The translations under genes were made by a program, and so were the position numbers. Shown piece after piece: positions 6,423 to 34,758 of a stretch of DNA of 41,713 bases. Below the pieces are notes generated by a model. That model was not told the DNA's origin and did not search any database. It saw only the letters and a list, made by a program, of their open reading frames with translations. The DNA is from Ignavibacteria bacterium (GTDB taxonomy: Bacteria > Bacteroidota > Ignavibacteria > Tepidaquicellales > OLB5): positions 1 through 41,713 of the forward strand of contig JANPBV010000306.1 of the NCBI GenBank assembly GCA_031430615.1, in the 5' to 3' direction. Position 1 is the stretch's first letter; each line of letters starts with the position of its first letter.

Positions 6423-7889
6423 TTATTTTTTTAAACTAAGTTCCAGTTCATTTACTTTTTCAAGCAGCCATTTATTGCCCAGGATTTTTGATCTCATTAT
6501 ATCTATTTTCAGTTCATCAATGGGTATATCAATTTCGTTGAGCTTCAGCCTGAAAAGTATTACGGTATACTTAATGAATTTTTCTCTAATAGTTTTTATT
6601 TCTTTGTTAAGAGAAGATTCATTTTTGATGAGATGTTTGAAGCTATCAACGTTATAAAAAAACTCTTCGCTTAGACCTAATTCATAATATATTTTTATGT
6701 ACATGTGATTTGCTCTTAGCTTTTCTGCGACATTATTATATTTTTGAACAGACAAAAGCTTCAAAGCAGACTTAAAATCTTTGTTTTTGATAGAAAGCTC
6801 GGCGTATGCGTGGTTGATTATATTGTGCCGTTCCTTTTCAGGTATCTTATCTTTATGGTTTTTAATCAGGTCTTCAGCAAACCTGACCTCTCCTGCCCTT
6901 AGAGATGTAATAAACGCATACATAAACCATTCCGGGTTAAATACCCCATCCTGAACCATCAATCCATTATTCAGCATATGTGAAATAATTTCAAACTCTT
7001 CTTTGTATATGTTCTTCCCCGGTATCAGGCTCATATCATAACAATATCCCAGTAAGCCAACGTAGATAACAAAACCTTCAACGGGTTCAAAGATATGCGC
7101 ATTTTTAGTAAGTGAATCTTTTAATTTAATGAAAGTTTTATGATCTCTGTTTGAAGTATAAAATTTTACCAGATGATACCATATTTCCACCGCTACAGAA
7201 TTCATAAAATCAGATTGCTCAACGAAATTTAAAAGCTGGTCAAGGTTTTTTATGCTGAAATCCCTGTTAAACTGCATTGAGTTCTGAATAGTAACCATAT
7301 ATAACCTAAGGAGTGTAATAACAGAAAATGCCCATATACTTTCTATCTGTTTCTGCGCATTTATGATCTTGCCGCTTGGGTCAGCGCTTACCTGGAACAT
7401 CCTTTTAGATTCCTCAAGAAAATTTACATTAAGGAAATATTTTGCATCACGAAGCGGCTGTTCTTCAAGAAAAGCTTCTGTTTTCTTAAGCTGTTTTCGG
7501 TAAAGTGAGCCGGCAGATTTGGCAAGATAGAAACCGAGCACGTTTTTTTCATAATCCATATGTTCCTTTCGGAATATAACATATGCCCCGAATTCTTCAC
7601 TAAGTTTTAACAGGTTACTCGAGAGTCTGCGGATAACATCATCACGGTATTTAGTTTTAGGATAAAGCCTGCCGAATATTTCTTCCTTTGAAAAATTTTT
7701 CTGCGAAAAACCAGGGTAAAACTTCTTCAGCTCTGTGAAAAAACGCGTAACTTCGGCTCTGTTATTATGAAATGGTGAATTAATAAATTTTTCCAGTTCC
7801 CGTATTTCCTCCTTTGATAACGTTTTGAGAAACAATATCACATTGCTGCTGGAAAAAGAACTGCTTATAGTATCCTTTTCTTTTTTCAC
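6423..7889 (-). CDS. SPFFN-family protein copy 1 (all-helical, TPR-like, no signal peptide; function unknown)
   Basis: 488 aa. N-terminal block EKFINSPFHNNRAEVTRFFTELKKFYPGF..DDVIRRLSSNLLKLSEEF. C-terminal blocks VDSFKHLIKN and NKWLLEKVNELE. Paralogous to four other ORFs in the window. Confidence 0.8.
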   Translation of the reverse strand: MKKEKDTISSSFSSSNVILFLKTLSKEEIRELEKFINSPFHNNRAEVTRFFTELKKFYPGFSQKNFSKEEIFGRLYPKTKYRDDVIRRLSSNLLKLSEEFGAYVIFRKEHMDYEKNVLGFYLAKSAGSLYRKQLKKTEAFLEEQPLRDAKYFLNVNFLEESKRMFQVSADPSGKIINAQKQIESIWAFSVITLLRLYMVTIQNSMQFNRDFSIKNLDQLLNFVEQSDFMNSVAVEIWYHLVKFYTSNRDHKTFIKLKDSLTKNAHIFEPVEGFVIYVGLLGYCYDMSLIPGKNIYKEEFEIISHMLNNGLMVQDGVFNPEWFMYAFITSLRAGEVRFAEDLIKNHKDKIPEKERHNIINHAYAELSIKNKDFKSALKLLSVQKYNNVAEKLRANHMYIKIYYELGLSEEFFYNVDSFKHLIKNESSLNKEIKTIREKFIKYTVILFRLKLNEIDIPIDELKIDIMRSKILGNKWLLEKVNELELSLKK

Positions 7890-7939: not shown

Positions 7940-9403
7940 TTATTTTATAATCTTCTCAAGCTCAGCAACTTTATCAAGCAGCCATTTGTTTCCCGCCACT
8001 TTGGAATTCAGGATATCTTTTTTTATTTGAGCCAGAATTACATTTGTATCTCCGTTTTTTAATCTGAAAAGCGGTGCAACATACCTTATAAAGTTTTCAT
8101 GAAGTTTCTTAACATAATCATTTACGGAATATTCATCTTTTATGATGTGTCTGAAGCTATCTATAATGTAATAAAATGATTCGCTATTATTCATATCATA
8201 ATGGATTTTTGTATACATATGGTTAACCCGCAGCTTCTCCCAGACATTATTAAATTTTACCTTTGCAAGATAAACAAGCGCTTTTTTGAAATTATTTTTG
8301 GCGAATTCAAGCTCTGCATATGCGTAGTTTACAATGTTGCTCCGTTCCTTCTCAGCGAGCATCATTTTATAATCTGCTATAAATTTCTCCGCGTATTTAA
8401 TTTCATTTGCTTTTAATGCCTTAAGAAAAACATTTGCAAACCACTCAGCGCTGATAGTGTTGCCTTCAGTAATCAATCCCAGCTCAAGCATTTTCACACC
8501 AACTTCAAATTCCAGTTCAGATATTTTTTGGTCAGGCGCCAGTCCTCTTTCAAAAAGATAATTATGCATTCCGGTATAAAAACCAAACAACTCTTCCTTG
8601 CTGAATATTTCCGGATTTTCATTCAGTAAATTCCTTAAGGAATAAAATGTTTCATCATTCCTGCCGTCTGTATTCAGTTTAAGTGAGAAATAGTATGCTT
8701 CGGCTGCAGCAGTTTTTTTAAATTCAGGGTTATTATAAATATCCAGCAGTGGTTTAAGCAGATCTACATTATGCTTCTTATTAAAATACATCATATCGTT
8801 TATTGCGGCATCGTATATTGCAAGTAATGCTATTACTGAATACTGCCATACCTGGTTGATCCTGTCCTGTGTATTATCAAATTTTTTACGTGTTGCATCA
8901 TATTGTGAAAAATACGAAGCTTTCGTTGTATCAAGCTGTTTGAGCCTGTAATAATATTCTGCATTCCTTAAACTTTGTTTTTCAAGATACTCATCAGTTT
9001 TTACAGCTTGTTTCCTGAAAAAATTCTGTTCAAATTTATCGGAATAATAATCCAGGATACGTTTTTTCTGTTCGTATTCATCATCTCTGAACATTTTGTA
9101 TGCTATGTAATCTTCTGCAAGCTTAAAAAGATTGCTCGAAAGCTTTCTTATCACGTCATCCTTATATTTTTTCCCGGGGTATAGGTTAGCAAAAATATTT
9201 TCTTTCGAAAAGTTTTTATTCCCGAATGATGGAAAGAATTGCTTTAACTCATCAAAAAATCTTGCAACTTCGCTTCTATTATTGAAAGGAGAATGCACAA
9301 ATTTCGCAAATTCAATTTTCTCATCTTTTGAAAATGACATGAGAAGCTGAATAATATTGCTGTTATAGAAAGAATCTTTTTTAATAATTTGTGTTTTTTC
9401 CAT
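7940..9403 (-). CDS. SPFFN-family protein copy 2
   Basis: 487 aa, lying 50 nt upstream of copy 1 on the same strand. Blocks: AKFVHSPFNNRSEVARFFDELKQFFPSF..DDVIRKLSSNLFKLAEDY, IDSFRHIIKD and NKWLLDKVAELE. Confidence 0.8.
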   Translation of the reverse strand: MEKTQIIKKDSFYNSNIIQLLMSFSKDEKIEFAKFVHSPFNNRSEVARFFDELKQFFPSFGNKNFSKENIFANLYPGKKYKDDVIRKLSSNLFKLAEDYIAYKMFRDDEYEQKKRILDYYSDKFEQNFFRKQAVKTDEYLEKQSLRNAEYYYRLKQLDTTKASYFSQYDATRKKFDNTQDRINQVWQYSVIALLAIYDAAINDMMYFNKKHNVDLLKPLLDIYNNPEFKKTAAAEAYYFSLKLNTDGRNDETFYSLRNLLNENPEIFSKEELFGFYTGMHNYLFERGLAPDQKISELEFEVGVKMLELGLITEGNTISAEWFANVFLKALKANEIKYAEKFIADYKMMLAEKERSNIVNYAYAELEFAKNNFKKALVYLAKVKFNNVWEKLRVNHMYTKIHYDMNNSESFYYIIDSFRHIIKDEYSVNDYVKKLHENFIRYVAPLFRLKNGDTNVILAQIKKDILNSKVAGNKWLLDKVAELEKIIK

Positions 9404-22829: not shown

Positions 22830-23240
22830 TTATATAACCTGTACCTGTGAAGTATTTGCCGGGTTGTATTTTATGTTAATTTTATCACCAACTCTTGGTA
22901 TAGCAATTTTTGATACAGCGGTTTCTGCGGTTGTTTCAAATGGTACGCCAAACTGAGGGGTAACCATTAATTTCAATTTTACTACCGGATTGAAATTAAT
23001 AAGCGCGCCGGTATCTTCGATACCTAAAACTTCGGCTGATGCGCCCATACCTGTTTGTCCAAGATTGCTTGTATCTGTATAATTCTTTGCCATATTTAAT
23101 GATGCATTTGTCTGGTCAACAAAATCCTTTCCCATGAAAGTTTTTGTTAAAAAGCCTGATACACCTGAGTTAATAGCTTTATCAGCATTTTCTAATGCTT
23201 TTTTTGGGTCATTTTCAATTTTTTTTCCGAATCCAAACAT
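22830..23240 (-). CDS. hypothetical 136-aa protein
   Basis: First ORF of the minus-strand cluster, with no signal peptide. A candidate -7 box (CAAAAATA on the plus strand, 23293..23300) lies upstream. Confidence 0.6.
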   Translation of the reverse strand: MFGFGKKIENDPKKALENADKAINSGVSGFLTKTFMGKDFVDQTNASLNMAKNYTDTSNLGQTGMGASAEVLGIEDTGALINFNPVVKLKLMVTPQFGVPFETTAETAVSKIAIPRVGDKINIKYNPANTSQVQVI

Positions 23241-23319
23241 GGTTTTGATTCCTTTCTTGTTTTAATTGTTTTATTTGAATTTTTTCATTCATACAAAAAT
23301 AACAGGGTTACTTAAGCTA

Positions 23320-23459
23320 TACAAAGAAATGATTTTATCTTTGTTTATTCTTTGATGTGATTCATTGTTACTTCAGTATTGCATTACAATGTTAAATTAC
23401 TGTTTTATATAGATTAAAGTGTGGAAAAATTTACTTTGAAGTTTTGTTTCTGCAAAAAA
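23320..23459. promoter_or_regulatory. copy M1 (shortened) of the conserved bidirectional control module
   Basis: TACAAAGAAA at 23320..23329 is a degenerate form of the TACAAAGATA decamer. GTGGAAAAATTTACTTTGAAGTTTTGTTTCTGCAAAAAA at 23421..23459 is a gapped match to the block found in M2-M4. Confidence 0.45.
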
Positions 23460-23577: not shown

Positions 23578-24015
23578 TTATTTAACTAACAGCATTTTTT
23601 TCATTTCGATGTAGCCTTCGGTTTGCAGACTGTATGTATAAACACCCGAAGAAAGATTTGAAACATCATACAAAATTTTGTAAGTTCCTTCACTTAGATC
23701 ACGGTTTATAATTTCATCTATCTCCTGTCCCATCATATCCATAAGTGTTATCCTTACCTGCTGCTTATCTGGGATACTAAAATATAATTCATTTTCAGTT
23801 CCTTCCTTACCCGGAAATACCTGCCCAAGATAAAACCAGCTTGGGGCTTGAGTAGATGTTTGAATTACCTTTGCTTTGGTATTGATTGAATGGTTAAAGT
23901 TTCCCGGGGAAATATTATTATAAAAATCATCATTCAGAACCGATTGCGAAAAAACCGGAAGTGAAAATAAACTAAACGTAAATAATGCAATCGTAAATAA
24001 TATTTTAATTTTCAT
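23578..24015 (-). CDS. minimal T9SS C-terminal-domain protein (signal peptide + ~45 aa + CTD)
   Basis: Signal peptide ..VFSQ and C-terminal Por_Secre_tail-like segment YFSIPDKQQVRITLMDMMGQ..GVYTYSLQTEGYIEMKKMLLVK. Confidence 0.75.
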   Translation of the reverse strand: MKIKILFTIALFTFSLFSLPVFSQSVLNDDFYNNISPGNFNHSINTKAKVIQTSTQAPSWFYLGQVFPGKEGTENELYFSIPDKQQVRITLMDMMGQEIDEIINRDLSEGTYKILYDVSNLSSGVYTYSLQTEGYIEMKKMLLVK

Positions 24016-24049: not shown

Positions 24050-24248
24050 TACAAAGATAATTTACAGTTAAGAGCAATACAAAGAAACCATTTAATAGAA
24101 GTTTAGAAGAACCGGCATGAAATTAGAAACGAAAGTGGTTCTGGTATTACTAACTGATTTATATATAAACAAGATAGAGCGGGAATATGAATTACGAATG
24201 TTTTGATATCTCAGTTTTGGAATTGATTTTCGGATTGTTTTTAAAATC
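24050..24248. promoter_or_regulatory. copy M2 of the conserved bidirectional control module (between the T9SS mini-protein and SPFFN copy 3)
   Basis: TACAAAGATA at 24050..24059 reads TATCTTTGTA on the minus strand, a TAnnTTTG -7 box 37 nt before the minus-strand ATG. CAAA lies 20 nt further on. The block TTTTGGAATTGATTTTCGGATTGTTTTTAAAATC is at 24215..24248. Confidence 0.55.
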
Positions 24249-24360: not shown

Positions 24361-25815
24361 ATGATAAGCGCTACTTTACTTGGAATGCTGAGCAAGTTTA
24401 ATCATAAGGAATTTAAAGATTTCGGAGAATTTGTGAAATCTCCTTTTTTTAATAAGAACATTCATGTAAAGCAGCTTTATGATTATCTTAAAAAGTTTTA
24501 TCCTGAATTCAGTGATAAAAAACTTGATAAAGAAGTTGTTTTTAAAAATCTATTTGTAGCGAAAAAATATAATGATGGATTTTTAAGAACGGTAATTTAT
24601 AACCTGGGAAAACTTGCTGAGGATTACCTTGCATACATAAATTTCAGGAAAAATGATCTTAACAGGGGAATAAGCCTGCTAAAAGAGCTTAATGAAAGAA
24701 AACTTGAAAAAGTCTTTCTAAGGTATTATGCCGAGATTGAAGAAGATATCAATTCATTGAAATACCAGGACAACGATTATTTTTACAAAAAGTTTGAGCT
24801 TCAAAACCAGAAAGAAACATATATGGACTGGAGTAAATTCAAGCATAAAGATTTCAAAAATTATACCACAAATACAACTTCATATATAAATGATGAGTTA
24901 ACAAGCTATTACTTATCTAAAGCCCTTAATCATTACCGTTTTATGCTTGATAAGAATATGTATGAACAGCTGGATTACAACTATGATTTTATTGAGCATA
25001 TCATGGAATTCTTATTGAAAAAGGATAAGTATTTTAGAGAAAAGATTAAAATAAAACTTCATCTATACGAAGTGCTTCTTATTAAAGATAAAAAGCATGA
25101 GTATTTCAAAATACTAAAAGATATTTTCATAAACGAAATGAAGCAGCTATCCCGAAGCGACCTCTACAGTCTTCATAATATTCTGCAAAGCTACTGTGTC
25201 TACCAGAATTATAATGATAAGCCCGGATACCTTGCGGAAAGATTTGAGCTTTACCGTATTTGCATCAATGAAAAACTGTATTCGGCTACTGAGCACATTT
25301 ATTTTGATGACCTTATGTTTGGTAATATTGTTAATACAGGAGCCGCAGTGCATGATTTTATATGGACTGAGAATTTTATTGAAGAGTTCAAAAATGCAAT
25401 TTCTCCTGATAACGCAGATGTTGTTGTAAATTATTCTTATGCAAGGCTGGCATTTGCCAGGAAAGAAAATGAAAAGGCGCTGTGGTATTTGAACAGTATC
25501 AAAACCATAAGGCATATCCAATATAAACTCCCTGTGAGAGATCTTACCCTGATGTGCTATTACGAAATGAATATGCTCAGCCAGTCATCATACCAGATAG
25601 ATTCATACAGGCATTTTTTAACGAACAATAAGGGCTCACTTTCAGATATAAGATTTGAAAGAATTATGAACTTCCTTAAGTTCTATACCAAGTTAGTTAA
25701 GAATAAAGAAAAAGGGAACATTAAGGAATGTATTAAGCTAAAAGAAGAACTTGGAAGTTCGAATAATGTGATTGAAAAAAGATGGCTTACTGAAAAAATA
25801 AAGGAGTTAGTATAA
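24361..25815 (+). CDS. SPFFN-family protein copy 3
   Basis: The start moves to ATG 24361 because the 24301 extension has no counterpart in the paralogs. Blocks: GEFVKSPFFNKNIHVKQLYDYLKKFYPEF, YNDGFLRTVIYNLGKLAEDY, IDSYRHFL and KRWLTEKIKEL. Confidence 0.8.
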   Translation: MISATLLGMLSKFNHKEFKDFGEFVKSPFFNKNIHVKQLYDYLKKFYPEFSDKKLDKEVVFKNLFVAKKYNDGFLRTVIYNLGKLAEDYLAYINFRKNDLNRGISLLKELNERKLEKVFLRYYAEIEEDINSLKYQDNDYFYKKFELQNQKETYMDWSKFKHKDFKNYTTNTTSYINDELTSYYLSKALNHYRFMLDKNMYEQLDYNYDFIEHIMEFLLKKDKYFREKIKIKLHLYEVLLIKDKKHEYFKILKDIFINEMKQLSRSDLYSLHNILQSYCVYQNYNDKPGYLAERFELYRICINEKLYSATEHIYFDDLMFGNIVNTGAAVHDFIWTENFIEEFKNAISPDNADVVVNYSYARLAFARKENEKALWYLNSIKTIRHIQYKLPVRDLTLMCYYEMNMLSQSSYQIDSYRHFLTNNKGSLSDIRFERIMNFLKFYTKLVKNKEKGNIKECIKLKEELGSSNNVIEKRWLTEKIKELV

Positions 25816-25816
25816 G

Positions 25817-27271
25817 TTGAATAAAAGCAGTCTTATAGAATCATTCAGAACATTTTCGCAAAAGGAAATGAAAGAATTTTCTGAATTTGTATCATCTCCG
25901 TTTTTTAACAAGAATGTTAATGTTGTTAAACTGTTTGACCTTATTAAAAAAAATTACCCTGAGTTTGATCAGAATAAAATAGAAAAAGAAAAGATTTTCG
26001 CAAAGCTATTTCCCGGGATCCCTTTTAAAGACAGCACTTTACGGCTTTTAATGTATTATTTGTACGAGCTTGTTGAAAAATTTCTCGCATATAACAGGTT
26101 TAGCAGCGATAAATTCTTTCATAAAGAGGTTCTGCTTGGTGAACTGTTTGACCGTAAGCTATTTAAGGATTATGAAAAGATAATTGAAGCGGCTAATGAT
26201 GAACTTGATAACTTTATTGTAAGAGATGCGTATTATTTCAGGAACCGATATGAATTTGCTGAGCATAAATTAAGTTATCTTGCCGAAATCTATATGGGAA
26301 AGTATGAGAAGTATTTAACCAAAGAAAACATTCAGCTTTTTTCTGATAACATAACATATTTTTACCTTATTAGTGTGCTTAAGTATTACGCAATAACCCT
26401 TAATACAATGTATCTGTATAATGTTAAAGTAGATACAAGCGTATTTGATAACATTCTTAAAAACTTTAACATTAATCAGTTTACAAATGTGCCTATGATA
26501 ACTATTTATTACAGGGTTATCCAGCTTTTTTTAAGACCTGATGACGAAGAAAATTATTACAGCCTTAAGGAACTGATAATAAAAAATGAAGATTTAATTG
26601 GTCAGTCAATTGGCGACCTTTATATAAATCTGGAAAATTATTGCGCAAGATGCTCAAGAAAGGGGAAACACAAATTCCTTCAGGAATCATTTGATATATA
26701 TGAAATGGAGCTTAAGAAAAAGACATACTCGCAGTATGGCTCTATGCCTAACTCTTTCTTTTCAAGCTTTGTTGTCACTGCAGGCAAACTTAAAAAATTT
26801 GAATGGCTGAGAAAATTCATAATAGACTATAAGGATGAATTAAACGAGCAATCAAAAGAGGCATATTATTTTTACAGTATGTCATTTCTTGAAAATGAAG
26901 AAGGAAATTTCGTGAAAGCCCTTGAATACCTTGCCAAGAGCAAGCCTGAAGAAGTGTACCTTAAAATGGATCTTCGCATTCTTCAATGCAGGATATACTA
27001 CAGCCTCGCTTGGAATATTCCGTTACAATCACTGCTTGATACATTTAAAAAGACAGTTCAGAATAATAAATATATAACTGATTTGAGAAAAGTTCAGTAT
27101 TATAAATTCATAAAATACACAAACCAGTTAAATAATATCAGGTACAAAGATGATAAGGCTTCCGCAGATGTTCTTCTGGATGAATTGAAACATGATGAGT
27201 TTTTTGCATATAAGATATGGGTAGTAGATGAAGCAGAGAAACTTGCTTATACAGGAGGTCAAAACAATTAA
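25817..27271 (+). CDS. SPFFN-family protein copy 4
   Basis: The TTG start is 1 nt after the TAA of copy 3 (TAA-G-TTG). Blocks: SEFVSSPFFNKNVNVVKLFDLIKKNYPEF and LDTFKKTV. The C-terminus is the most divergent of the five. Confidence 0.75.
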   Translation: MNKSSLIESFRTFSQKEMKEFSEFVSSPFFNKNVNVVKLFDLIKKNYPEFDQNKIEKEKIFAKLFPGIPFKDSTLRLLMYYLYELVEKFLAYNRFSSDKFFHKEVLLGELFDRKLFKDYEKIIEAANDELDNFIVRDAYYFRNRYEFAEHKLSYLAEIYMGKYEKYLTKENIQLFSDNITYFYLISVLKYYAITLNTMYLYNVKVDTSVFDNILKNFNINQFTNVPMITIYYRVIQLFLRPDDEENYYSLKELIIKNEDLIGQSIGDLYINLENYCARCSRKGKHKFLQESFDIYEMELKKKTYSQYGSMPNSFFSSFVVTAGKLKKFEWLRKFIIDYKDELNEQSKEAYYFYSMSFLENEEGNFVKALEYLAKSKPEEVYLKMDLRILQCRIYYSLAWNIPLQSLLDTFKKTVQNNKYITDLRKVQYYKFIKYTNQLNNIRYKDDKASADVLLDELKHDEFFAYKIWVVDEAEKLAYTGGQNN

Positions 27272-27537: not shown

Positions 27538-27594
27538 TCATTCAATTAACGTAAAGTATTACTATGAAAATAATGCCTTCTTACTTAGCCTGAA

Positions 27595-27999
27595 TCATTT
27601 TTTTTGCATCTCTTGTGCAGCCCAGGTTGAAATATCTGACATTCTTTTGGCCTGCTCTGTGGTCATTTTAGCTGATACCTGCGATAGTTTTGTAGAAAAA
27701 TCCGTAGACTTTTTCCCAAGCTCAGTGTACTTATCTGTAACGCTCATATCACCAGCTTTGAACTTCTTGGTAACTTCAACATATTCTTTCATTATCTTTT
27801 CATAATCAGTAATGAGTCCGTCTATTTCATTGCCGCTTTCCGTCTTGGTATCAGTTTTTGTATCGCTCTTTGTTTCTGTCTTTGAATCAGTCTTTGTGTC
27901 AGTTTTTGTATCTGAATCCTTCTTGCCGCAGCTGTTTAACGAGAATGAGATGATGAATAAAGCTAAAAAAAGAACCGCTGTTTTGAATGCGTTTTTCAT
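27595..27999 (-). CDS. lipoprotein with (T/S)(D/E)(T/S)K tetrapeptide repeats and a helical C-terminal domain
   Basis: The start moves to ATG 27999, which aligns with the paralog start and the upstream AAAGAGGCAGAA. Lipobox LNSCG is followed by DSDTKTDTKTDSKTETKSDTKTDTKTES. The C-terminal ~75 aa are almost identical to those of 28616..29008. Confidence 0.8.
   Translation of the reverse strand: MKNAFKTAVLFLALFIISFSLNSCGKKDSDTKTDTKTDSKTETKSDTKTDTKTESGNEIDGLITDYEKIMKEYVEVTKKFKAGDMSVTDKYTELGKKSTDFSTKLSQVSAKMTTEQAKRMSDISTWAAQEMQKK
27835..27918 (-). repeat. 12-bp-period coding microrepeat (7 TDTK-type units)
   Basis: Residues D28-S55 of the lipoprotein. This copy has one more 4-aa unit than the paralog. 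Confidence 0.75.
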
Positions 28000-28056
28000 T
28001 GTTCTGCCTCTTTTTGTTTGGTTTTTGGAATGTTTGTTTATCATGATATTTTAAAC

Positions 28057-28086: not shown

Positions 28087-28149
28087 CTGAAAAATTTGAT
28101 GTGAAGATTGTTTCATAATACTAAACGATCTTATAGTTTTCATTTTATA

Positions 28150-28338
28150 TACAAAGATAGATTTATTCCAGACGGTAAAAAAAGAATATTTAAGGTCAAT
28201 GTTTAAAAACGGAGTATCTTTATACATCAAAAATTTATGCATATTTCCGTTTTTTTTATTATTTTAACCACTTTATTCCATTCCATTTGTTTGAAGAATT
28301 TATATTTTGGAATTTATTTGAAGATTGTTTCAGAAAAC
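28150..28338. promoter_or_regulatory. copy M3 of the conserved bidirectional control module
   Basis: TACAAAGATA at 28150..28159 and block TTTTGGAATTTATTTGAAGATTGTTTCAGAAAAC at 28305..28338. The whole interval 28150..28395 aligns end to end with 33055..33297 and has nearly the same length. Confidence 0.6.
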
Positions 28339-28390
28339 TGCATGACTAAAAACGTTAGCATACTGTATATACTATATTTTTAAAGGACTT

Positions 28391-28534
28391 ATGGCTAAAA
28401 CACACCGCTTTGTTTAATTTTTTTTTGATGAACAACCGCTAAAGGTGTTTAATAACTTTGTTAAATCTCATTTATTTGATACTAACAATTACAAATATCA
28501 ATATGTATTTTTTCATTTTTGTTGGAGTTATTAA
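28391..28534 (+). pseudogene. decayed, truncated 5' remnant of a sixth SPFFN-family gene
   Basis: Reads ATG..TAA(28415)..FFFDEQPLKVFNNFVKSHLFDTN, compared with copy 5 KKFDKQQLKDFNNFVKSPFFNTN. It has an in-frame stop after 8 codons. Similarity ends before the 13-bp-stem hairpin at 28534..28564. The upstream 80 nt are homologous to the copy 5 promoter region. Confidence 0.6.
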
Positions 28535-28564
28535 TAACCCGTGAGTTGGGGACTCACGGGTTAT
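28534..28564 (-). terminator. strong hairpin downstream of lipoprotein copy 2 (terminator-like, no clear U-run)
   Basis: ATAACCCGTGAGT / ACTCACGGGTTAT is a perfect 13-bp stem with a 5-nt loop. Confidence 0.5.
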
Positions 28565-28615
28565 ACTTCAATTAACGTACTGCATTATGGAGAACTATGC
28601 AGATTTGTTTACAGC

Positions 28616-29008
28616 TTATTTTTTTTGCATTTCCTCAGCTGCCCAGGTTGAAATATCTGACATTCTTTTCGCCTGCTCTGTGGTCATTTTAGCTGATACC
28701 TGTGAAAGCTTTGTCGAAAAATCCGTTGATTTTTTTCCAAGTTCAGTGTACTTATCTGTAACGCTCATATCACCTGCTTTAAACTTTTTAGTAACTTCAA
28801 CATATTCTTTCATTATCTTTTCATATTCGGTAATGAGTCCGTCTATTTCATTGCCGCTATCTGATTTTGTATCAGTTTTTGTCTCAGTTTTCGTATCGGT
28901 CTTTGAATCTGTTTTTGTGTCTGAGTCCTTCTTGCCGCAGCTATTTAAAGTGAATGCCATGAAAAGTACTGCTAAGAATAATACTGATGTTCTAATTGTG
29001 GATTTCAT
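28616..29008 (-). CDS. lipoprotein with TDTK-type repeats, paralog of 27595..27999
   Basis: Lipobox LNSCG followed by DSDTKTDSKTDTKTETKTDTKSDS. The C-terminal domain is nearly identical to that of copy A. Confidence 0.8.
   Translation of the reverse strand: MKSTIRTSVLFLAVLFMAFTLNSCGKKDSDTKTDSKTDTKTETKTDTKSDSGNEIDGLITEYEKIMKEYVEVTKKFKAGDMSVTDKYTELGKKSTDFSTKLSQVSAKMTTEQAKRMSDISTWAAEEMQKK
28856..28927 (-). repeat. 12-bp-period coding microrepeat (6 TDTK-type units)
   Basis: Residues D28-S51 of the lipoprotein. Confidence 0.75.
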
Positions 29009-29057
29009 TTTTTCTGCCTCTTTTTATTTTTTAGTTTTTTAAATGATGTTTTAAATC

Positions 29058-29087
29058 AGTGATGCGATAAGAACTTACCGCATCACT
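29058..29087 (-). promoter_or_regulatory. conserved leader hairpin, copy B (AGTGATGCG-N12-CGCATCACT)
   Basis: Perfect 9-bp inverted repeat lying between the stop of the 627-aa gene (29146) and the lipoprotein ATG (29008). Confidence 0.6.
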
Positions 29088-29145
29088 TTAATAAAATGTG
29101 ATGCTATTTAACCAGCCTTAGAAACAAGGCAGCAAAATAACGAAG

Positions 29146-31029
29146 TTATTTTACTAGCATCATTTTCTTGACGTCGGTGAAACCTTCTGCTTCAATTTTA
29201 TAGAAATATACACCTGAAGATAAAGTAGATGCGTTGAAATCTACTTTATATGAACCGGCATTGTAGTTTCCGTTAACCAGCTCTGAAATCTGTTTACCCA
29301 GCATATCATATACAACCAGCTTAACCATTCCTGATTTTGGAATGCTGAAATTAATATTAGTCACCGGATTGAACGGATTAGGATAGTTTTGGCTTAATTC
29401 AAATCTATCAGGAACATTATTGCCGATAGGTTCAACTGCGGTTATAAGCTGCTCAGCATTATAATATACGTTGTTTGGACCCTGGCCGGCGTATGTTAAG
29501 GCTGAGTTTAAAATACCGTTTGTATTAATAATAGCACAAACAGGCGCGAGTAGACCTGTGCTCATTACACTGTTTCTTTTATACTGATATGTACCCATGC
29601 TTGTAGGTGTTCCTCTTCTTATGGTAACAGAATCACCGTTCTGGTCAACTGTACACATCATTACATAGCCGCCTCCTGTTGTGTTTGAGTCTGACGAGCA
29701 CCATGTGAAATCCCTGAGTCCTACGCTTGTAAGATTCTGGTCTATAGTCCATGTTGTTCCGCCGTTTAATGAATAATGATACTTTGCAACGTTAGCTTTG
29801 GTGCATGTTACAATCATCTTTTTCTGCACAGTCCCGTGCTGCTGAACAACTGTTAAGCATGGTTTTTCATATTTTATTCCTGATGTATTAGTAATATAAT
29901 ATGGATGATATGTAGTACTCGGAAACTCAGGGGTTGCTAATACCCTTATTTCATAATCTGTAGCGGAAAATCTTCTTTCAATCGCAATATAAATTGAATC
30001 ACTGCCGTTTTTTTCACCATACTGCACGCTTGGGTAGAAATCGTTGTTCCCCGTTACAATTGCTGAATTTGAATGTGTTGAAGCCCAGTTTGTTGTAAAA
30101 TAATGCCTTAGGCCTACATGTGTGTTTGTATTGGTAGCTTCTTTAACAACGGCATGCATAAAAGTAGGCACATCATAATACTGTCCGTCACTGCACGCAG
30201 AAACATATTCATATTTATTGCCGGCCGGTGGCGTGCCAACAACCTGGTTAAACTGAGCAGTTCCGTTTCTTCTTGATGACCATACCCAAAGCTGTGCGTC
30301 GTTGCCGTTTACATTAGGCGCGGTTGTAAAATAAACTAAAAACCTTGTTGAATCAGGGTTTGAGTTATTTACGCTCCTGTTTTCTACAAGCATGGATAAT
30401 GTAAAGAGCTTCCATGACGCAAAAGACAGAGTTTGGCTCATGGGCCATGTTGCCCCGTTGTTTGAAGACATGTAAACAGTTATGCCGTCAAGTGTTCCGC
30501 TGATGCCGGTCCTTGCTATGCATAAATACATCCAGTTGTCGTCTCCCTGTTTTAAGTCAAGCCTTCTGAAAAAGCCGCCGTTTGTGCCTAAAGTTCCGCT
30601 GTAAGGCTGTACATCACTTGTATACCAGTCTGTCTGGAATGGTGGATTATTAAAGTTTGTGCTGAACTCAGCTTTAAATTCACTTTCCAGTGATGGCTGA
30701 TTTTGCTTTGACGGGCTATTCTGTTCAATGTATGACTGAATTAAATTCCCGATTCTCAGCTTCTCATTTTCATTGCTGGAATTCTTAGCATCCAGGTACT
30801 GGTTAATAAGCTCCTGCGGAATGTTCACATCATTTCTCTGAAGAACAGATTCCTGTCTTTCGCTGTTCCTGATGCCCCAGTCACCGGGGACTTCCTTTGA
30901 TTCCTTTGATTCATGTGATTCCTGTGCAAGTGAAACTGATGAGATAAGCAATAAGATCATTGCTTGAATTAAAAAAAGCGTTTTGAAATGTTTTCCCGAA
31001 GAAATTCGGGATTTTACTGTGTTCAACAT
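29146..31029 (-). CDS. T9SS-sorted secreted protein (627 aa), possible sialidase-like beta-propeller core
   Basis: Signal peptide ..SVSLAQE and an ESKESKE low-complexity linker. Asp-box-like motifs SSNNGATW and SLNGGTTW. C-terminal Por_Secre_tail QNYPNPFNPVTNINFSIP...KKMMLVK. Confidence 0.85.
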   Translation of the reverse strand: MLNTVKSRISSGKHFKTLFLIQAMILLLISSVSLAQESHESKESKEVPGDWGIRNSERQESVLQRNDVNIPQELINQYLDAKNSSNENEKLRIGNLIQSYIEQNSPSKQNQPSLESEFKAEFSTNFNNPPFQTDWYTSDVQPYSGTLGTNGGFFRRLDLKQGDDNWMYLCIARTGISGTLDGITVYMSSNNGATWPMSQTLSFASWKLFTLSMLVENRSVNNSNPDSTRFLVYFTTAPNVNGNDAQLWVWSSRRNGTAQFNQVVGTPPAGNKYEYVSACSDGQYYDVPTFMHAVVKEATNTNTHVGLRHYFTTNWASTHSNSAIVTGNNDFYPSVQYGEKNGSDSIYIAIERRFSATDYEIRVLATPEFPSTTYHPYYITNTSGIKYEKPCLTVVQQHGTVQKKMIVTCTKANVAKYHYSLNGGTTWTIDQNLTSVGLRDFTWCSSDSNTTGGGYVMMCTVDQNGDSVTIRRGTPTSMGTYQYKRNSVMSTGLLAPVCAIINTNGILNSALTYAGQGPNNVYYNAEQLITAVEPIGNNVPDRFELSQNYPNPFNPVTNINFSIPKSGMVKLVVYDMLGKQISELVNGNYNAGSYKVDFNASTLSSGVYFYKIEAEGFTDVKKMMLVK

Positions 31030-31222: not shown

Positions 31223-32683
31223 TCATTTAACTAAAACCATTTTCTTTATTTCTGTAAATCCATCTGCTTCAATCCTGTAGAAATAAATACCTGAGGAAAA
31301 TTCTGTGGCGTCAAAATCAACCTTATATGAGCCTGCATTATATTCTCCGTCAACAAGTTCAGCAGCCTGTTTGCCAAGCGCATCGTAAACAACAAGCTTA
31401 ACGATTCCTGATCTTGGAATGCTGAAGTTAATATTTGTTACCGGGTTAAATGGGTTTGGATAGTTCTGGCCTAACGAAAAATTATCCGGTAAATTATTGC
31501 CATTAGGTTCAATTCCAACCGGATTGCCGGTGGGATCGCGCTTGTAGTATATTTCATAATTCCCATCACGATAGTCATACCATACCAAATGAACTGTCGG
31601 ACCGGAGATAGTAACCGAAGGAAACCCTGAGAAGGCGGCGGCACTATTAGTCAGCCTTATATCAGCTCCCCAGCTAATGCCTCCATCAGTTGTACGCTTG
31701 TAATATATCTCATCATCGGCATCACGCATGTCCTGCCACACCAAATGCGCAGCTTGGCCTGAAACAGCAATCGAAGGATACCATGAATGAGAAGAGCTAT
31801 TTGTAAGCCTGGTATCAATTCCCCAGCTTACCCCTTCATCTGTAGAGCGCTTATAATATATTTCATCATTAAGAATTCCATTGCGATTGTCATGCCATAC
31901 GAGATGAATATCTGAGCCTGAAGCAGCAACCGATGCATACCTCGAAGCGGAAGCGTTATTTGTCAGTCTTGTATCAGTTCCCCAGCTTACTCCTCCATCT
32001 GTAGAACGCTTGTGGTAAATCTCACTGTTTCCATCGCGCTGGTCATCCCATGCAACATGCACAACTGTTCCTAAAACTGTAATGGATGCATATTTTGATA
32101 ATCCGGCGCTATTCGTCATCCTTGTATCAGCTCCCCAGCTTATTCCACCATCTGTAGAGCGCTTGTAGTATATCTCTTGGTTTCCATTGCGGCTATCATC
32201 CCATACCAAATGAACAGTTGTACCGGATACTGTAAGTGAAGGGCTATATGAACCTCCGGGGCTATTCGTCATCCTTGTATCAGCTCCCCAGCTCGTTCCT
32301 TCATCTGTAGAGCGTTTGTAGTATATTTCATCGTCTCCGTCACGCGTGTCGTTCCATACCAAATGCACTGTTGAACCTGAAACTGCAATCGAAGGACTAT
32401 GTGATTGACTGGTATTATTTGTCAGTCTTATATCGGCTCCCCAGCTTAGACCGCCATCAGTGGAACGCTTGTAATATATCTCATTGTTTGAATTCATCAA
32501 TAAATCCCGGGTGTCATACCATACAACATGTATAACTGAACCTGTTGAAGCTACACACCATGAATTATTGAAAGAAGTATTTGATGCAGCAGGATCATTT
32601 GTTAGTCGTGCCTCTGGTAACCACTGCGTATATGACGAGTTTGTTAAAATAAGAATTAGAAGAATAATTAATACAGTTTTCAT
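31223..32683 (-). CDS. T9SS-sorted BNR/Asp-box repeat beta-propeller protein
   Basis: The start moves to MKTVLIILLILILTNSSYTQ. It has about 7 tandem ~47-aa repeats of the form W.D.R.G..EIYYKRSTDGG.SWG.D.RLTN...........SG..VHLV. The C-terminal Por_Secre_tail ends in KKMVLVK. Confidence 0.85.
   Translation of the reverse strand: MKTVLIILLILILTNSSYTQWLPEARLTNDPAASNTSFNNSWCVASTGSVIHVVWYDTRDLLMNSNNEIYYKRSTDGGLSWGADIRLTNNTSQSHSPSIAVSGSTVHLVWNDTRDGDDEIYYKRSTDEGTSWGADTRMTNSPGGSYSPSLTVSGTTVHLVWDDSRNGNQEIYYKRSTDGGISWGADTRMTNSAGLSKYASITVLGTVVHVAWDDQRDGNSEIYHKRSTDGGVSWGTDTRLTNNASASRYASVAASGSDIHLVWHDNRNGILNDEIYYKRSTDEGVSWGIDTRLTNSSSHSWYPSIAVSGQAAHLVWQDMRDADDEIYYKRTTDGGISWGADIRLTNSAAAFSGFPSVTISGPTVHLVWYDYRDGNYEIYYKRDPTGNPVGIEPNGNNLPDNFSLGQNYPNPFNPVTNINFSIPRSGIVKLVVYDALGKQAAELVDGEYNAGSYKVDFDATEFSSGIYFYRIEADGFTEIKKMVLVK
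31549..32623 (-). repeat. coding tandem repeats (~140 bp period) of the BNR propeller
   Basis: Units such as CCCCAGCT(T/C)A..CC.CCATC(A/T)GT(A/G)GA(A/G)CGCTT(G/A)TA(A/G)TA recur at a regular ~140-bp spacing. Confidence 0.8.
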
Positions 32684-32756
32684 TTTAATTGTCTTTTCTT
32701 TAAAATTTGATAAAATTATATGCATTATTTTGTATTATTAATTAATTTTTGCTTTT

Positions 32757-33035
32757 TTATGCTACTTTTTTGCTTACAGGTTCACTCCACGGACCCTGCA
32801 TCTTTGAATTTACTGCTGCCACCCTGAATAAATACATCTTGTTTTGTTTCAGACCCTTAATTGTGTACTTTGATTCATTTATTATATCTACCAAAACCCA
32901 TTTATCTTTTAAGCTTTCGACCTTGTATTCAATTACGTATGAATCTGCAATTTCCATTCCATCCCAATTAAGATCAACTTCGTTTTTAACATCGCCATTT
33001 GCTGCGCTTAAAGATGATATGATCAATTCCTGCAT
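32757..33035 (-). CDS. stand-alone fibronectin type III domain protein (92 aa, no signal peptide)
   Basis: VDLNWDG..ADSYVIEYK......W......ESKYTIKGLKQNKMYLFRVAAVNS.GPWS is a typical Fn3 pattern. It is the first gene behind the -7 box at 33057..33064. Confidence 0.65.
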   Translation of the reverse strand: MQELIISSLSAANGDVKNEVDLNWDGMEIADSYVIEYKVESLKDKWVLVDIINESKYTIKGLKQNKMYLFRVAAVNSKMQGPWSEPVSKKVA

Positions 33036-33054
33036 TCTTGTTTTAAATTTGTCT

Positions 33055-33242
33055 TACAAAGATAGAATCTGAAGCGCCCCAATAAAAAGAAATTTCAGCA
33101 CTAATGTTTTTAATGAAACAGGAATATTGCAGAAGGAAATTCTTTAAAATTGGATTTTTGTATTCTTTTTAGCATATTACGCAGAGTAGATTGTTAGTAG
33201 ATTTTGGTCTGTGGAATATATCGGCAGATTGTTTCTGAAAAG
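33055..33242. promoter_or_regulatory. copy M4 of the conserved bidirectional control module (between the Fn3/T9SS operon and SPFFN copy 5)
   Basis: TACAAAGATA at 33055..33064 is a -7 box 22 nt before the minus-strand ATG. Block TGGAATATATCGGCAGATTGTTTCTGAAAAG is at 33212..33242. Confidence 0.6.
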
Positions 33243-33259
33243 GGCATAACTAAAAACGT

Positions 33260-33267
33260 TATTTTTG
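33260..33267 (+). promoter_or_regulatory. candidate -7 box (TATTTTTG) of SPFFN copy 5
   Basis: Exact TAnnTTTG 28 nt upstream of the ATG at 33295. Confidence 0.45.
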
Positions 33268-33294
33268 TTAAACTGTACTTAATTCTATAGACTT

Positions 33295-34758
33295 ATGATC
33301 GAGAGTTCGCTTATTTTATTACTGAAAAAGTTCGATAAACAGCAGTTGAAAGACTTTAATAATTTTGTAAAGTCACCATTCTTCAATACAAACAGCGCGC
33401 TGGTTAAGCTATACGAGTACATCAGGAAACAATATCCTGATTATAACCCCGAGAAGCTTGAAAAAGAATTTGTTTACAAAAAGCTCTTCGGAAAGACGGA
33501 ATACAACGATGGATTTCTAAGAGTATTGATGTCAAACCTTCAGAGTCTGGCTGAGGAGTACCTTACATACAACAGATTTCAGGCAGACACTTTAATAAAG
33601 AAGAAATATTTACTTGATGCATTGAGCGGTATAGGAGCAAGAAAGCAGGCTGAAAAAGTACTGAATGAAGGATTGAAAGAAATTTCTAAATTATCGCCGC
33701 AGAACCCGGATGATTACCTTGGAATGTATCATATGGCTTTTTATAAAAGGTATTTTTACAGCACCCAATTTGTTGTTAATAAAAGTAATAAACCTGATGA
33801 GAGTATTTTTGATGAACAGAAATATTTTATTATGCATTTTCTTTTAAGAACGCTTGCAGGTCATTTCTACCATCTTAATCAAATGCAGATAATAAGCTAT
33901 GAACCAAAACTTATTTTTCTTGATGAGATCACTTTATTTCTGGAAAGGAATCCCGGGTATCTTGAAGTGCCAATGCTTAATATTACCTTTCTGCGGCTGC
34001 TATTACTTAAGAATAATGACATAAAGGACTATTACAGATTAAAAGAATCATTTTATAGAACATTTGAAAAACTGGACATTAAAGACGCGTTTAATACGAT
34101 ATCTGTTATACTCAATTACTGTCAGAGAAATTACTCGCAAACAGATGATGAATTATTTCAATTGGAAAAATTTGACATACTTAAATTCGCAATAAAGAAT
34201 GATCTTAATACATTTGAAAAAAGTGAGGGCATGGATGGAAGCAGGTTTCACAATATAGTAAGTACCGCGCTTGATTTCAAAGAAACTGGCTGGGCTGAAG
34301 ACTTTATCAAAAATTTCGGCAATAAACTAGATCCGGATAAAAAAGATTACCTGATTGCATTTGCTGATGCAATGGTTCTTTCTTCAAGGAAAGAAAATGA
34401 TGAAGCTTTGGAGCGTTTATCAAAGCTAAGGAACCCGGCTTCATCAAATGATAAGTTCAATTTAAAAGTACTTCAGATGAAAATTTATTTTGAAATGGAT
34501 TTTATTGACCAGGCAGAAAGTTCTGCAGATTCATTCAGGCACATGATCCAAAACGATAATGTTTTGCCTGAAGCATACAAGGAATTACATAAGAATTTTT
34601 ATAATTTCTACATGAAATTATTATCTATAAAGCTTAAACATGATAGAACTTTGTTAATTGAACTTTTGGGAAAGTTGAATTCCGTAAGAAATGTAATTCA
34701 GAAGAAGTGGATCGCTGAAAAGGTCAATGAAATAGAAAATGAAATGAATGTTAGCTGA
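33295..34758 (+). CDS. SPFFN-family protein copy 5
   Basis: 487 aa. Blocks: NNFVKSPFFNTNSALVKLYEYIRKQYPDY, YNDGFLRVLMSNLQSLAEEY, ADSFRHMIQN and KKWIAEKVNEIE. Confidence 0.8.
   Translation: MIESSLILLLKKFDKQQLKDFNNFVKSPFFNTNSALVKLYEYIRKQYPDYNPEKLEKEFVYKKLFGKTEYNDGFLRVLMSNLQSLAEEYLTYNRFQADTLIKKKYLLDALSGIGARKQAEKVLNEGLKEISKLSPQNPDDYLGMYHMAFYKRYFYSTQFVVNKSNKPDESIFDEQKYFIMHFLLRTLAGHFYHLNQMQIISYEPKLIFLDEITLFLERNPGYLEVPMLNITFLRLLLLKNNDIKDYYRLKESFYRTFEKLDIKDAFNTISVILNYCQRNYSQTDDELFQLEKFDILKFAIKNDLNTFEKSEGMDGSRFHNIVSTALDFKETGWAEDFIKNFGNKLDPDKKDYLIAFADAMVLSSRKENDEALERLSKLRNPASSNDKFNLKVLQMKIYFEMDFIDQAESSADSFRHMIQNDNVLPEAYKELHKNFYNFYMKLLSIKLKHDRTLLIELLGKLNSVRNVIQKKWIAEKVNEIENEMNVS

Follow-up and report, generated by a model that had tools for sequence, protein, structure and literature searches.

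Organization of the four divergent spacers

The window, a 41,713-nt stretch of DNA from an Ignavibacteria bacterium, contains four intergenic spacers of similar layout, called modules S, A, D and C here. To the left, on the minus strand, they are followed by gene 22830..23240 (S), a gene with a T9SS tail (A), a lipoprotein gene (D) and an fn3 gene (C); the diverging gene is often one for a T9SS-secreted protein or a lipoprotein. To the right, A and C lead into genes of a family of ~485-aa proteins, which has no Pfam or NCBIfam model and, when grouped at 50% identity, forms at least 11,000 clusters. S and D are best read as orphan copies from which the family gene has been lost. Promoter positions were assigned from consensus boxes throughout.

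Module C (33055-34758)
33055..33064, minus strand: leftward -7 box, TATCTTTGTA on this strand, an exact decamer, with the fn3 gene beginning 22 nt further on at 33035
33088..33109, plus strand: site 1, AGAAA-N12-TGTTT, from a pattern scan; its left half, read as TTTCTTTT on the minus strand, forms the -33 region at a distance of 20 nt from the -7 box
33192..33195, plus strand: extra invariant TGTT, a possible half-site, 17 nt before GGAAT (columns T157-T160 of alignment A5)
33213..33234, plus strand: site 2, GGAAT-N12-TGTTT, 82 nt before the ATG and core of a 34-nt block; GGAAT and TGTT invariant
33260..33267, plus strand: candidate -7 box of gene C, TATTTTTG, matching TAnnTTTG, 28 nt before the ATG at 33295 and 25 nt after site 2
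33295..34758, plus strand: family gene C, 487 aa, all-alpha and TPR-like, no Pfam or NCBIfam match

Module D (orphan, 28096-28500)
28150..28159, minus strand: leftward -7 box, separated by 153 nt from the lipoprotein gene start at 27999; GCAAAGATAG in the related locus L016
28183..28204, plus strand: site 1, AGAAT-N12-TGTTT; counterpart in L016 at 7085, with 21 of 22 bases the same
28309..28330, plus strand: site 2, GGAAT-N12-TGTTT; counterpart at 7210 of L016, where the spacer differs
28392..28500, plus strand: remnant of a family gene, N-terminal coding part only with an early stop, read directly from the sequence

Modules A and S (23240-24361)
24050..24059, minus strand: leftward -7 box of A, 37 nt before the start of the T9SS-tail gene at 24015
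24083..24104, plus strand: site 1 of A, AGAAA-N12-AGTTT; its left half, read as TTTCTTTG on the minus strand, forms the -33 box, with 20 nt between it and the -7 box
24182..24203, plus strand: upstream right-hand site of A, GGAAT-N12-TGTTT, kept in L016, L017 and L020
24219..24240, plus strand: second right-hand site of A, GGAAT-N12-TGTTT, within the block at 24215-24248 and 142 nt before the ATG at 24361
23292..23301, minus strand: leftward -7 box of S (orphan), TATTTTTGTA, 54 nt before gene 22830..23240; identical in L016
23325..23346, plus strand: site 1 of S, AGAAA-N12-TGTTT; the minus strand here reads TTTCTTTG, the -33 box
23423..23444, plus strand: right-hand site of S, GGAAA-N12-AGTTT, with no family gene downstream; L016 (2436) and L020 (9363) have the same 12-nt spacing

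The tandem right-hand sites of A (24182 and 24219) and a further partial copy in the D spacer (28096-28122) do not feature in the original prediction for this DNA. The ‘plus gene’ of spacer D is a remnant of ~110 nt (ATG at 28392), truncated by a tandem duplication of ~1 kb whose second copy sits after it (duplication families D3, D6, D11 and D16). In the orphan D of L016 the ATG of the remnant has become ATA. Both orphan D copies, in the window and in L016, have kept the two sites, and the -7 box corresponding to that of gene C has decayed in both.

By alignment, the four spacers are diverged copies of one predicted bidirectional control region of ~240 bp. D and C, earlier proposed to align at both ends of the intervals 28150..28395 and 33055..33297, match end to end between 28140-28394 and 33045-33297, with ~59% identity and one 1-nt gap. 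In the best ungapped register 135 of 255 positions agree, compared with 91.7 on average in shuffles (sd 3.7, z = 11.8). The best-matching stretch, 28287-28357 against 33191-33261, reaches 77% (duplication family D9), and CTAAAAACGTTA occurs exactly at both 28346 (D) and 33250 (C). A previous manual count for a 34-nt block of D (28305-28338) was reproduced exactly for A (26 of 34 positions at 24215-24248) and becomes 26 of 34 over 33209-33242 for C, where 24 of 32 had been counted over a shorter span. The fourth spacer (23241-23577) does contain the same parts, as had been suggested, but the gapped match proposed there to TGTTTC is replaced by a conserved right-hand site, GGAAA-N12-AGTTT at 23423. 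The more general proposal that the control region was copied along with the family genes is upheld in the homology of the four spacers and in their association with these genes. A miniature mobile element was considered and rejected: no inverted repeat pairs bracket the modules and the copies lie at syntenic places in relatives.

A predicted leftward promoter in every module

Consensus boxes predict a leftward promoter of the Bacteroidota sigma-A type in every module. The consensus for the Bacteroidota primary sigma factor (sigma-ABfr) consists of TTTG at -33 and TAnnTTTG at -7, separated by 19-21 nt (PMC7366714), and the consensus described for Flavobacterium and Chlorobi promoters is alike (bioRxiv 10.1101/172254); no promoter study for Ignavibacteria was found in the literature. 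On the minus strand of the modules, TAnnTTTG takes the form TATCTTTG at 33064, 28159 and 24059 and TATTTTTG at 23301. The complete -7 boxes are TATCTTTGTA or TATTTTTGTA, situated 22 nt (C), 37 nt (A), 54 nt (S) and 153 nt (D) from the start codon. Twenty nucleotides upstream of the -7 box, the -33 box is TTTCTTTG in S and A and TTTCTTTT or ATTCTTTT in C and D; TTTG-N20-TAnnTTTG can be read directly in A and S, and C and D have TTTT at -33. The leftward promoter of locus L011 reads TTTG-N21-TATCTTTG. The leftward half of each module is therefore described as sigma-ABfr-like (TTTCTTTG-N20-TATCTTTG in A and S), and differs from that consensus by a -7 box extended to TAnnTTTGTA and by an extra pentamer 12 nt upstream of the -33 box.

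The decamer TACAAAGATA, reported before at 1963, 24050, 28150 and 33055, was found at all four positions and also at a fifth, previously unlisted one (13396), within a helicase gene. These five matches compare with 0.18 expected, a count of five being reached in none of 100 shuffles. Its assignment to the -7 box (TAnnTTTG) of the minus-strand gene agrees with the invariance of CAAAnnTA in 13 orthologous spacers, in which AAAGAA, on the -33 side within site 1, is invariant as well. Similar -7 boxes precede many other genes of the window, and boxes extended to TAnnTTTGTA are also found before other gene starts (5452, 5353, 23301). The locus represents a clean, phylogenetically footprinted example of a predicted -33/-7 promoter of the Bacteroidota type in Ignavibacteria. 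A search for sigma-70-type -35/-10 promoters was uninformative, as expected for the phylum (38 consensus-like sites vs 43.5 in shuffles).

A two-part motif upstream of the family genes

What is new here is the predicted cis-regulatory motif GGAAT-N12-TGTTT, which forms the conserved core of the block. It is 22 bp long with a fixed spacing, and its information content is confined to the two pentamers, the sequence of the spacer and the flanks being free. Each module carries two or three copies of the form RGAAW-N12-WGTTW, all in one orientation, among them a second copy (site 1, AAGAAW-N12-WGTTT) that overlaps the leftward -33 box and whose left half, as the sequence reads, is inseparable from an ordinary -33 box. 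The relaxed pattern has 11 matches on both strands of the window, nine of which are on the plus strand within the four spacers. GAAT-N12-TGTT matches 10 times compared with 3.3 expected, and 10 matches were reached in 0 of 100 shuffles. Across 257 kb of non-redundant loci, GGAAT-Nx-TGTT occurs 31 times at x = 12 and 2-11 times at the other spacings from 6 to 20, and, of the 31 N12 matches, 20 are on the strand of a family gene and precede its ATG by 77-179 nt; these motif counts are not independent events because the copies share descent. GGAAT is present in 22 of 28 motif instances, the remainder having GGAAA or AGAAT. Elsewhere in the ~257 kb of related loci scanned, no convincing further site was found.

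All A-type and C-type relatives retrieved have the right-hand GGAAT-N12-TGTTT, and so does the clade of L023, L028 and L030. Survival of the motif there, where the proteins are only ~30% identical to A and C, supports selection on the plus-side block. At site 1 of module C, AAAGAA and TGTT are invariant and the 12-nt spacing is fixed in 13 orthologs; the right half of site 1 in L023 is TTTTA instead of WGTTW. The extra TGTT of module C is also found in L023 and L028, as GATTGTTAC. The candidate -7 box of gene C reads TAGTTTTG/C/A in L016, L017 and L011 and TATTTTTG in L023, L028 and L030. The distance from GGAAT to the ATG differs by clade (82, 124 and 142/179 nt) and is 82-83 nt in all C-type loci. 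Spacers of E/F-type family genes (window 9404-9758 and L021) have other blocks in common and lack the motif, as do the distant family members in L003, L013, L014, L024, L026 and L027. The 22-bp motif thereby marks one branch of a very large unannotated family that is repeatedly arranged head-to-head with type-IX-secreted proteins.

A match to the block inside gene E (7818-7837) falls within coding sequence, its position there has no homology to that of the block, and it was treated as chance. A conserved upstream ORF was also rejected: in C and D, the AATGTTT of site 1 opens ORFs of 22 codons that terminate at the same aligned place, but these are broken by early stops in L001 and L004.

Alternative explanations for the conserved sites

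We infer that the motif is a candidate protein-binding DNA site for a dedicated transcription regulator. More specifically, the two-part motif is most likely the docking site of a putative regulator of the large family and its neighbours. The best reading of the modules as a whole, to which we would give about an even chance, is that they are homologous bidirectional sigma-A promoter regions with two sites for such a regulator.

It is rather unlikely, in our estimation, that no dedicated regulator is involved and that the pentamers belong to nothing more than two sigma-A promoters (an extended -33 element plus an upstream RNA polymerase contact), shared by descent and maintained by the usual selection on promoters. 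Homology of the spacers is established, the GAAT half of site 1 gives the -33 box ATTCTTTG when read on the other strand, and in gene C TGTTTCT lies at the expected -33 region, with a TTCT-N23-TA spacing as in the leftward promoters. However, at the distance from the -7 box seen in the modules, the other, non-module sigma-A promoters of the window show no further pentamer 12 nt off, and site 2 is off the -33 distance from the best -7 box in L023, L028, L030 and the A type. Moreover, the orphan D copies retain site 2 with the gene and its -7 box gone, and GGAAT is invariant across lineages between which the spacers are otherwise randomised to 44-58% identity. Site 2 as a promoter for an alternative, ECF-like sigma factor, with GGAAT as -35 and (T)GTT as -10, appears less probable and is on the whole unlikely; the family genes would then have a further start, used under specific conditions, and long leaders of ~53-112 nt. 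GGAAT fits the GGAAY/AAC-type -35 box of such promoters. Like promoters of the ECF sigma-R and sigma-H types (GGAAT-N18-GTT and GGAAC-N17-GTT), site 2 has two short boxes, GGAAT and GTT in sigma-R-type promoters (bioRxiv 10.1101/172254), with strictly fixed spacing, a free spacer and an orientation always directed to the gene, and an independent promoter could naturally lie at variable distances from the sigma-A -7 boxes. Yet the boxes stand in every instance here as GGAAT-N13-GTT, 13 nt apart vs 17-18, and a 7-bp -35 motif leaves 10-11 bp compared with the 16-18 bp spacer of ECF promoters (bioRxiv 10.1101/2020.06.23.168245). Site 1, with the same motif, faces away from the leftward gene and has neither a conserved -7-like box nor a gene after it, and in the 257 kb scanned the motif occurs essentially only at family genes, no wider regulon being seen there. 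Sigma-54 promoters have the form GG-N10-GC (TGGCAC-N5-TTGC) and were rejected, the distance between GG and the conserved G being 15 nt and the GC dinucleotide being absent.

If the transcript started at a conserved TATATTTG/A box ~120 nt before the ATG, the block could be a 5' leader RNA element, either a structured riboregulator or a linear protein site. More distant C-type orthologs do have a TATATTTG or TATATTTA box between sites 1 and 2, in which case site 2 would be transcribed, and GGAAT lies at a fixed 82-83 nt from the ATG in the C type. This explanation is very doubtful: the distance to the ATG varies by clade, RNAalifold gave 0 conserved pairs in 13 leaders, and there was no Rfam match at gathering score in the window and none at E <= 1 inside the spacers. 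Site 1, with the same motif, precedes the candidate boxes for a rightward start (33260, or a TATATTT-like one near 33160) and lies upstream of both promoters, which together with the absence of pairing and of Rfam matches argues for an element acting as DNA and not as RNA. Finally, the palindromic core GTTTC-N-GAAA(A)C, taken in the original prediction for an operator, would be the binding site of a dimeric repressor. It is present in C (33231-33241), D (28327-28338) and L016, and loosely in L007, but this is its whole distribution: L011 has TTGTTTCTCCGATT and L001 TTGTTTTTGTTTATC, the right arm GAAA(A)C is absent from L011, L001, L004, L005, L008, L010, L012, L023 and the A-type sites, and at most 0.5 bit of information lies downstream of TGTTT. 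The palindrome is thus an extremely improbable operator.

Proposed mechanism and comparison with known systems

Under the preferred reading of regulator sites within a two-way promoter region, the positions of the sites relative to the promoters suggest how they might act. In all four modules site 1, which includes the -33 element, stops 23 nt short of the leftward -7 box; between site 2 and the rightward -7 box the gap is 25 nt in the close C group. Each site would therefore span approximately -37 to -58 if the transcript begins ~7 nt beyond the -7 box. From that position a protein could either aid RNA polymerase at a weak -33 element or block it. With a site at each of the two promoters, one regulator could thus govern the family gene and the diverging gene jointly. 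In L023 the nearest good -7 box is ~53 nt from site 2 and the A type has only near-consensus boxes; given these clade-dependent distances, no single fixed activator geometry would apply across clades, and no consistent helical phase of the sites relative to the predicted starts was found across clades. S and D keep the leftward promoter and the sites after loss of the family gene, and the simplest explanation would be that these still drive and regulate the leftward gene.

Divergent spacers between a regulator and its target, with activator sites abutting the -35 element, are known from the pho boxes of PhoB, the heptad repeats of SARP proteins and the T-N11-A sites of LysR-type regulators. 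The modules resemble these in that a 22-bp site borders on or extends into the upstream promoter element, with a weak -33 at the overlap, and in that a possible regulator gene and a diverging target flank a spacer holding two sites. Unlike them, the half-sites of the modules are neither direct nor inverted repeats and are 17 bp apart centre to centre, not 10-11, and the adjacent family protein has no recognisable DNA-binding domain. Half-sites unlike each other and 17 bp apart had no match among the DNA-binding families tested. A non-canonical two-box motif, PM2, has been described in Bacteroides thetaiotaomicron (PMC7366714) and later proposed to be read by a transcription factor of no assigned identity (PMC11697453). 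As a possible lead, compared by description, PM2 is likewise a two-box motif of an FCB-group bacterium with boxes ~20 nt apart, but it is near-palindromic, centred at -10 and -30, and associated with oxidative-stress genes.

The adjacent family protein as a possible regulator

The adjacent ~485-aa TPR-like protein is a weak lead for the putative regulator, and the motif is a practical handle for finding that regulator and for probing whether the family proteins regulate. In a fuller version of this idea, the family would consist of unrecognised one-component regulators with a highly diverged, winged-helix-like N-terminus and a Rap/TPR-like sensor; the A/C clade would itself bind GGAAT-N12-TGTTT and control its own genes and the divergent genes for T9SS-secreted proteins or lipoproteins, with the orphans S and D as targets in trans. 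We regard this as improbable. Such a layout could be comparable to that of HilA or SARP proteins. If the family proteins are not regulators, an ordinary and well-conserved control region remains.

Sequence searches identified no DNA-binding domain in the family protein (Pfam, including Trans_reg_C and HTH_3/Xre), hhalign of the family protein against PhoB/OmpR gave a probability of 0.4%, and a PDB profile search with the full-length and N-terminal alignments gave no match. A genome scan with one family protein gave 3 loci. The AF2 model of residues 1-110 (pLDDT 91) is all-helical and has no wing. For these residues the lowest-rmsd Foldseek matches are the DNA-binding domains of PhoB, RstA, TcpP and PerR, with rmsd 2.2-2.4 for PhoB and RstA and 3.9-5.0 for PerR and TcpP, all of them non-significant (TM 0.38-0.46, E 5-10, probability <= 0.41). 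RNPP-type receptors (Rap, NprR, PlcR) pair a TPR sensor fold with an Xre-type HTH or 3-helix bundle at the N-terminus. The full-length model of the family protein is an all-alpha solenoid, whose top Foldseek matches are, weakly, RapF and RapJ (E 6e-3, TM 0.22-0.29).

Four intergenic spacers share a duplicated control region

The original prediction held that a bidirectional control region had been copied into four intergenic spacers, referred to here as modules S (23241-23577), A (24016-24360), D (about 28000-28394) and C (about 33036-33297). This reading is upheld, and all of the elements listed for it are present in the window. The decamer TACAAAGATA is found at 1963, 24050, 28150 and 33055 as claimed, with an additional copy at 13396 that falls within a gene (five occurrences versus 0.18 expected). 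The 34-nt block at 28305-28338 is identical to 24215-24248 at 26 of 34 positions, as had been counted, and to 33209-33242 at 26 of 34. Between decamer and ATG, spacers D and C align with a single 1-nt gap, and the best ungapped register gives 135 identities in 255 positions (shuffles: 91.7 +/- 3.7).

Modules A and C precede members of a family of paralogs of about 485 residues, present in the window as five full genes:

6423..7889, minus strand, family gene E
7940..9403, minus strand, family gene F
24361..25815, plus strand, family gene A
25817..27271, plus strand, family gene B
33295..34758, plus strand, family gene C

S and D are orphan modules whose family gene was lost. The plus-strand gene proposed for D does have its ATG (28392), but it is a remnant in which about 110 nt still resemble N-terminal coding sequence, truncated by the tandem duplication (~1 kb) of a lipoprotein gene, whose second copy follows. 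The longest ORF of gene A begins at TTG 24301; paralog and ortholog alignment places the true start at ATG 24361, making spacer A 345 nt long.

The five paralogs share 22-30% pairwise identity, except E and F (43%), and none has a match in Pfam or NCBIfam. A five-paralog profile search returned 11,162 clusters (50% identity level, E <= 1e-3), so the family is both large and unannotated. All of the best 150 matches are 465-509 aa long, and conservation is strongest at the N-terminal motif F..FV.SPFFN. Homologues of the family protein are named as Ignavibacteria throughout, save one Bacteroidia, which assigns the window to an Ignavibacteria bacterium. Genes E and F form a tandem pair with 50 nt and no module between the F stop and the E GTG start. 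Given the single family gene at the F-type locus L021 of a relative, gene E may be a lineage-specific duplicate.

Comparison with relatives

The modules were compared with 31 loci from relatives, of which the most informative are described here. Three are syntenic with the window: L016 and L017, with C orthologs at 75% and 66% identity, and L020 (the J0M37 relative), with an A ortholog at 74%. Eleven more loci carry C-type orthologs at 51-65% identity, two being duplicates of others and one having no upstream spacer. Family genes of L023, L028 and L030 share just about 30% identity with A and C, but L023 and L028 have the gene C context, with one fn3 gene and one T9SS-tail gene alongside. One locus of F type and several loci with more distant members of the family were also used. 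Outside a few short blocks, orthologous spacers in this AT-rich DNA are 44-58% identical (MAFFT); since the remaining spacer is thus randomised, we regard the invariant blocks as genuine footprints.

The module left end resembles an ordinary promoter

The decamer had been proposed to contain a Bacteroidota -7 box, and this is borne out. CAAAnnTA, the reverse complement of TAnnTTTG, is invariant in 13 aligned C-type spacers; AAAGAA(T), whose reverse complement (A)TTCTTTG includes the -33 TTTG, lies 20 or 21 nt to its right, and modules A and S have exact TTTG-N20-TAnnTTTG. By these boxes the module left end is an ordinary leftward promoter. Extended boxes TAnnTTTGTA recur 17-55 nt from gene starts across the window (e.g., 5452, 5353, 23301), so the identical decamer is a strong case of a general -7 box, and both common descent and selection towards the consensus account for its recurrence. 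At 1963 the decamer is likewise a generic promoter box, with the rest of the module missing.

A bipartite motif with constant spacing occurs at two sites

The palindromic core of the 34-nt block had also been put forward as a candidate operator. This proved wrong: most orthologs lack GAAA(A)C, the arm behind the palindromic look, and the only invariant parts are GGAAT and TGTT(T) at a constant separation of 12 nt (site 2, on the family-gene side). In a logo of 28 instances, information is confined to the two pentamers, with none in the spacer or flanks. A spacing control on 257 kb of non-redundant sequence gives GGAAT-Nx-TGTT 31 matches at x = 12 versus 2-11 at each other x from 6 to 20. Of the 31, 20 are on the strand of a family gene and precede its ATG by 77-179 nt. 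The relaxed form RGAAW-N12-WGTTW has 11 matches on both strands of the window, nine of which are on the plus strand within the four spacers. The A clade retains the site in two tandem copies, and the C and L023/L028/L030 clades retain it as well; it is absent at the E/F-type and more distant family genes examined.

The same two-part form and 12-nt spacing are found at the left (site 1), where AAAGAAW-N12-WGTTW, previously noted as AAAAAGAA.TTT......AATGTTT, overlaps the leftward -33 box. All four modules have it, and it is invariant in the C-type set. Site 1 exceeds a plain -33 box, because the window's other sigma-A promoters have no such pentamer at the corresponding place.

The geometry is regular: in each of the four modules site 1 ends 23 nt upstream of the leftward -7 box, and site 2 ends 25 nt upstream of TATTTTTG (33260-33267). 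This sequence is the best candidate -7 box for gene C and is retained in L016, L017, L011, L023, L028 and L030 and decayed in both orphan D copies. From these distances, and with a start assumed about 7 nt past the -7 box, each site would cover promoter positions of roughly -37 to -58, and the two sites would be opposite in orientation relative to transcription.

Two further elements were observed near site 2. An inverted repeat TAAC-N7-GTTA (ATAACTAAAAACGTTAT, 33244-33260) lies between site 2 and the gene C -7 box; it has counterparts in D (28340-28357), L016, L017 and L007, is kept by about half of the C-type orthologs, and might represent an additional, palindromic operator or just a short hairpin. 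Left of the D decamer, 28096-28122 is an extra partial copy of the site 2 right half and downstream bases (GAAGATTGTTTCATAATACTAAACG, 85% to 28313-28339), for which the L016 alignment is vague.

How the motif may act

RNAalifold finds no conserved pair among 13 leaders, and Rfam returns no hit at gathering score, nor any in the spacers at E <= 1. Site 1 is located upstream of both promoters, and a small upstream ORF of C and D was rejected as unconserved. From this we conclude that the motif would act as double-stranded DNA.

ECF promoters of the sigma-R/sigma-H type use the boxes GGAAT and GTT, arranged as GGAAT-N17/18-GTT (bioRxiv 10.1101/172254), with spacers modelled at 16-18 bp (bioRxiv 10.1101/2020.06.23.168245). 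The module motif has the same boxes, which favours an alternative-sigma promoter, but separates them by N13 without exception, and the GG-N10-GC spacing of sigma-54 promoters does not fit either. Because of these misfits, and because the motif is found essentially at family genes only in the 257 kb scanned, we rank first a dedicated DNA-binding regulator, giving it about an even chance. The main weakness of the regulator reading is that no fixed distance from site to best -7 box holds in all clades: for site 2 it is 25 nt within the close C group but about 53 nt for L023, and the A type has just near-consensus boxes (TATTTATG, TAATTATG) 23-27 nt downstream. A single activator geometry thus does not hold across the clades, and the alternative-sigma and plain-promoter readings are less likely rivals. 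The bipartite motif is well supported as a new cis-regulatory motif; its interest is moderate, chiefly as a way into a very large family of uncharacterised proteins.

The neighbouring family protein as a candidate regulator

A head-to-head gene pair is a classic layout of regulator and target. Family genes lie head-to-head with T9SS-cargo genes (Por_Secre_tail) in many independent contexts, including one Bacteroidia genome, which suggests that the family and secreted cargo are functionally linked. The arrangement occurs in L016, L017, L023, L026, L027 and L028, and in the window at:

23578..24015, head-to-head T9SS arrangement
31223..33035, head-to-head T9SS arrangement

AF2 models the full-length protein as an all-alpha solenoid (pLDDT 77) whose best PDB matches, to Rap/NprR-type TPR proteins, are weak (E 6e-3, TM 0.2-0.3). 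The first 110 residues are modelled with high confidence (pLDDT 91) and have no significant PDB match; the lowest-rmsd partial matches, all non-significant, are winged-helix DNA-binding domains of PhoB, RstA, TcpP and PerR. Sequence and profile comparisons give no support for a DNA-binding domain in the family protein. Autoregulation by the neighbouring family protein is a lead that we consider improbable.

History of the module copies

The D spacer is 70% identical to the L016 C spacer versus 58% to the window C spacer, and D is present in L016 (ATG mutated to ATA) and absent from L017. D therefore stems from a C-like copy that predates the window/L016 split, and its gene was lost early. S parallels the left two-thirds of A and is found in L016 and L020; in L017 there is no room for it, the flanking genes being 44 nt apart. 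L020 lacks the entire segment from the lipoprotein gene through gene C, and has S and A in one 810-nt gap with no gene called where the window has a T9SS-tail gene. The region is therefore a hotspot of gain and loss. No terminal repeats hinting at a mobile element surround the module copies. The features concerned are:

L020 9190-10000 and 12891-12900, loci of the gain/loss region
27528-28094 and 28554-29095, ~1-kb tandem duplication (75-89% identity) carrying the lipoprotein gene and flanks
27595..27999 and 28616..29008, two copies of the DUF6591-like lipoprotein gene

The lipoprotein duplication is single-copy in L016 and L017. A conserved hairpin, GTGATGCG...CGCATCAC, occurs at 28058-28087, 29059-29088 and L017 7470-7497, and probably terminates the T9SS gene that lies upstream on the minus strand (29146..31029). 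The duplication carried the hairpin along, and the first lipoprotein gene now has one copy inside its long leader. Finally, 31538-32530 holds five to seven tandem coding repeats of 153-156 nt inside a 500-aa T9SS protein (31223..32725), each encoding the form W..D.RDG..EIYYKRSTD.G.SWG.D.RLTN.
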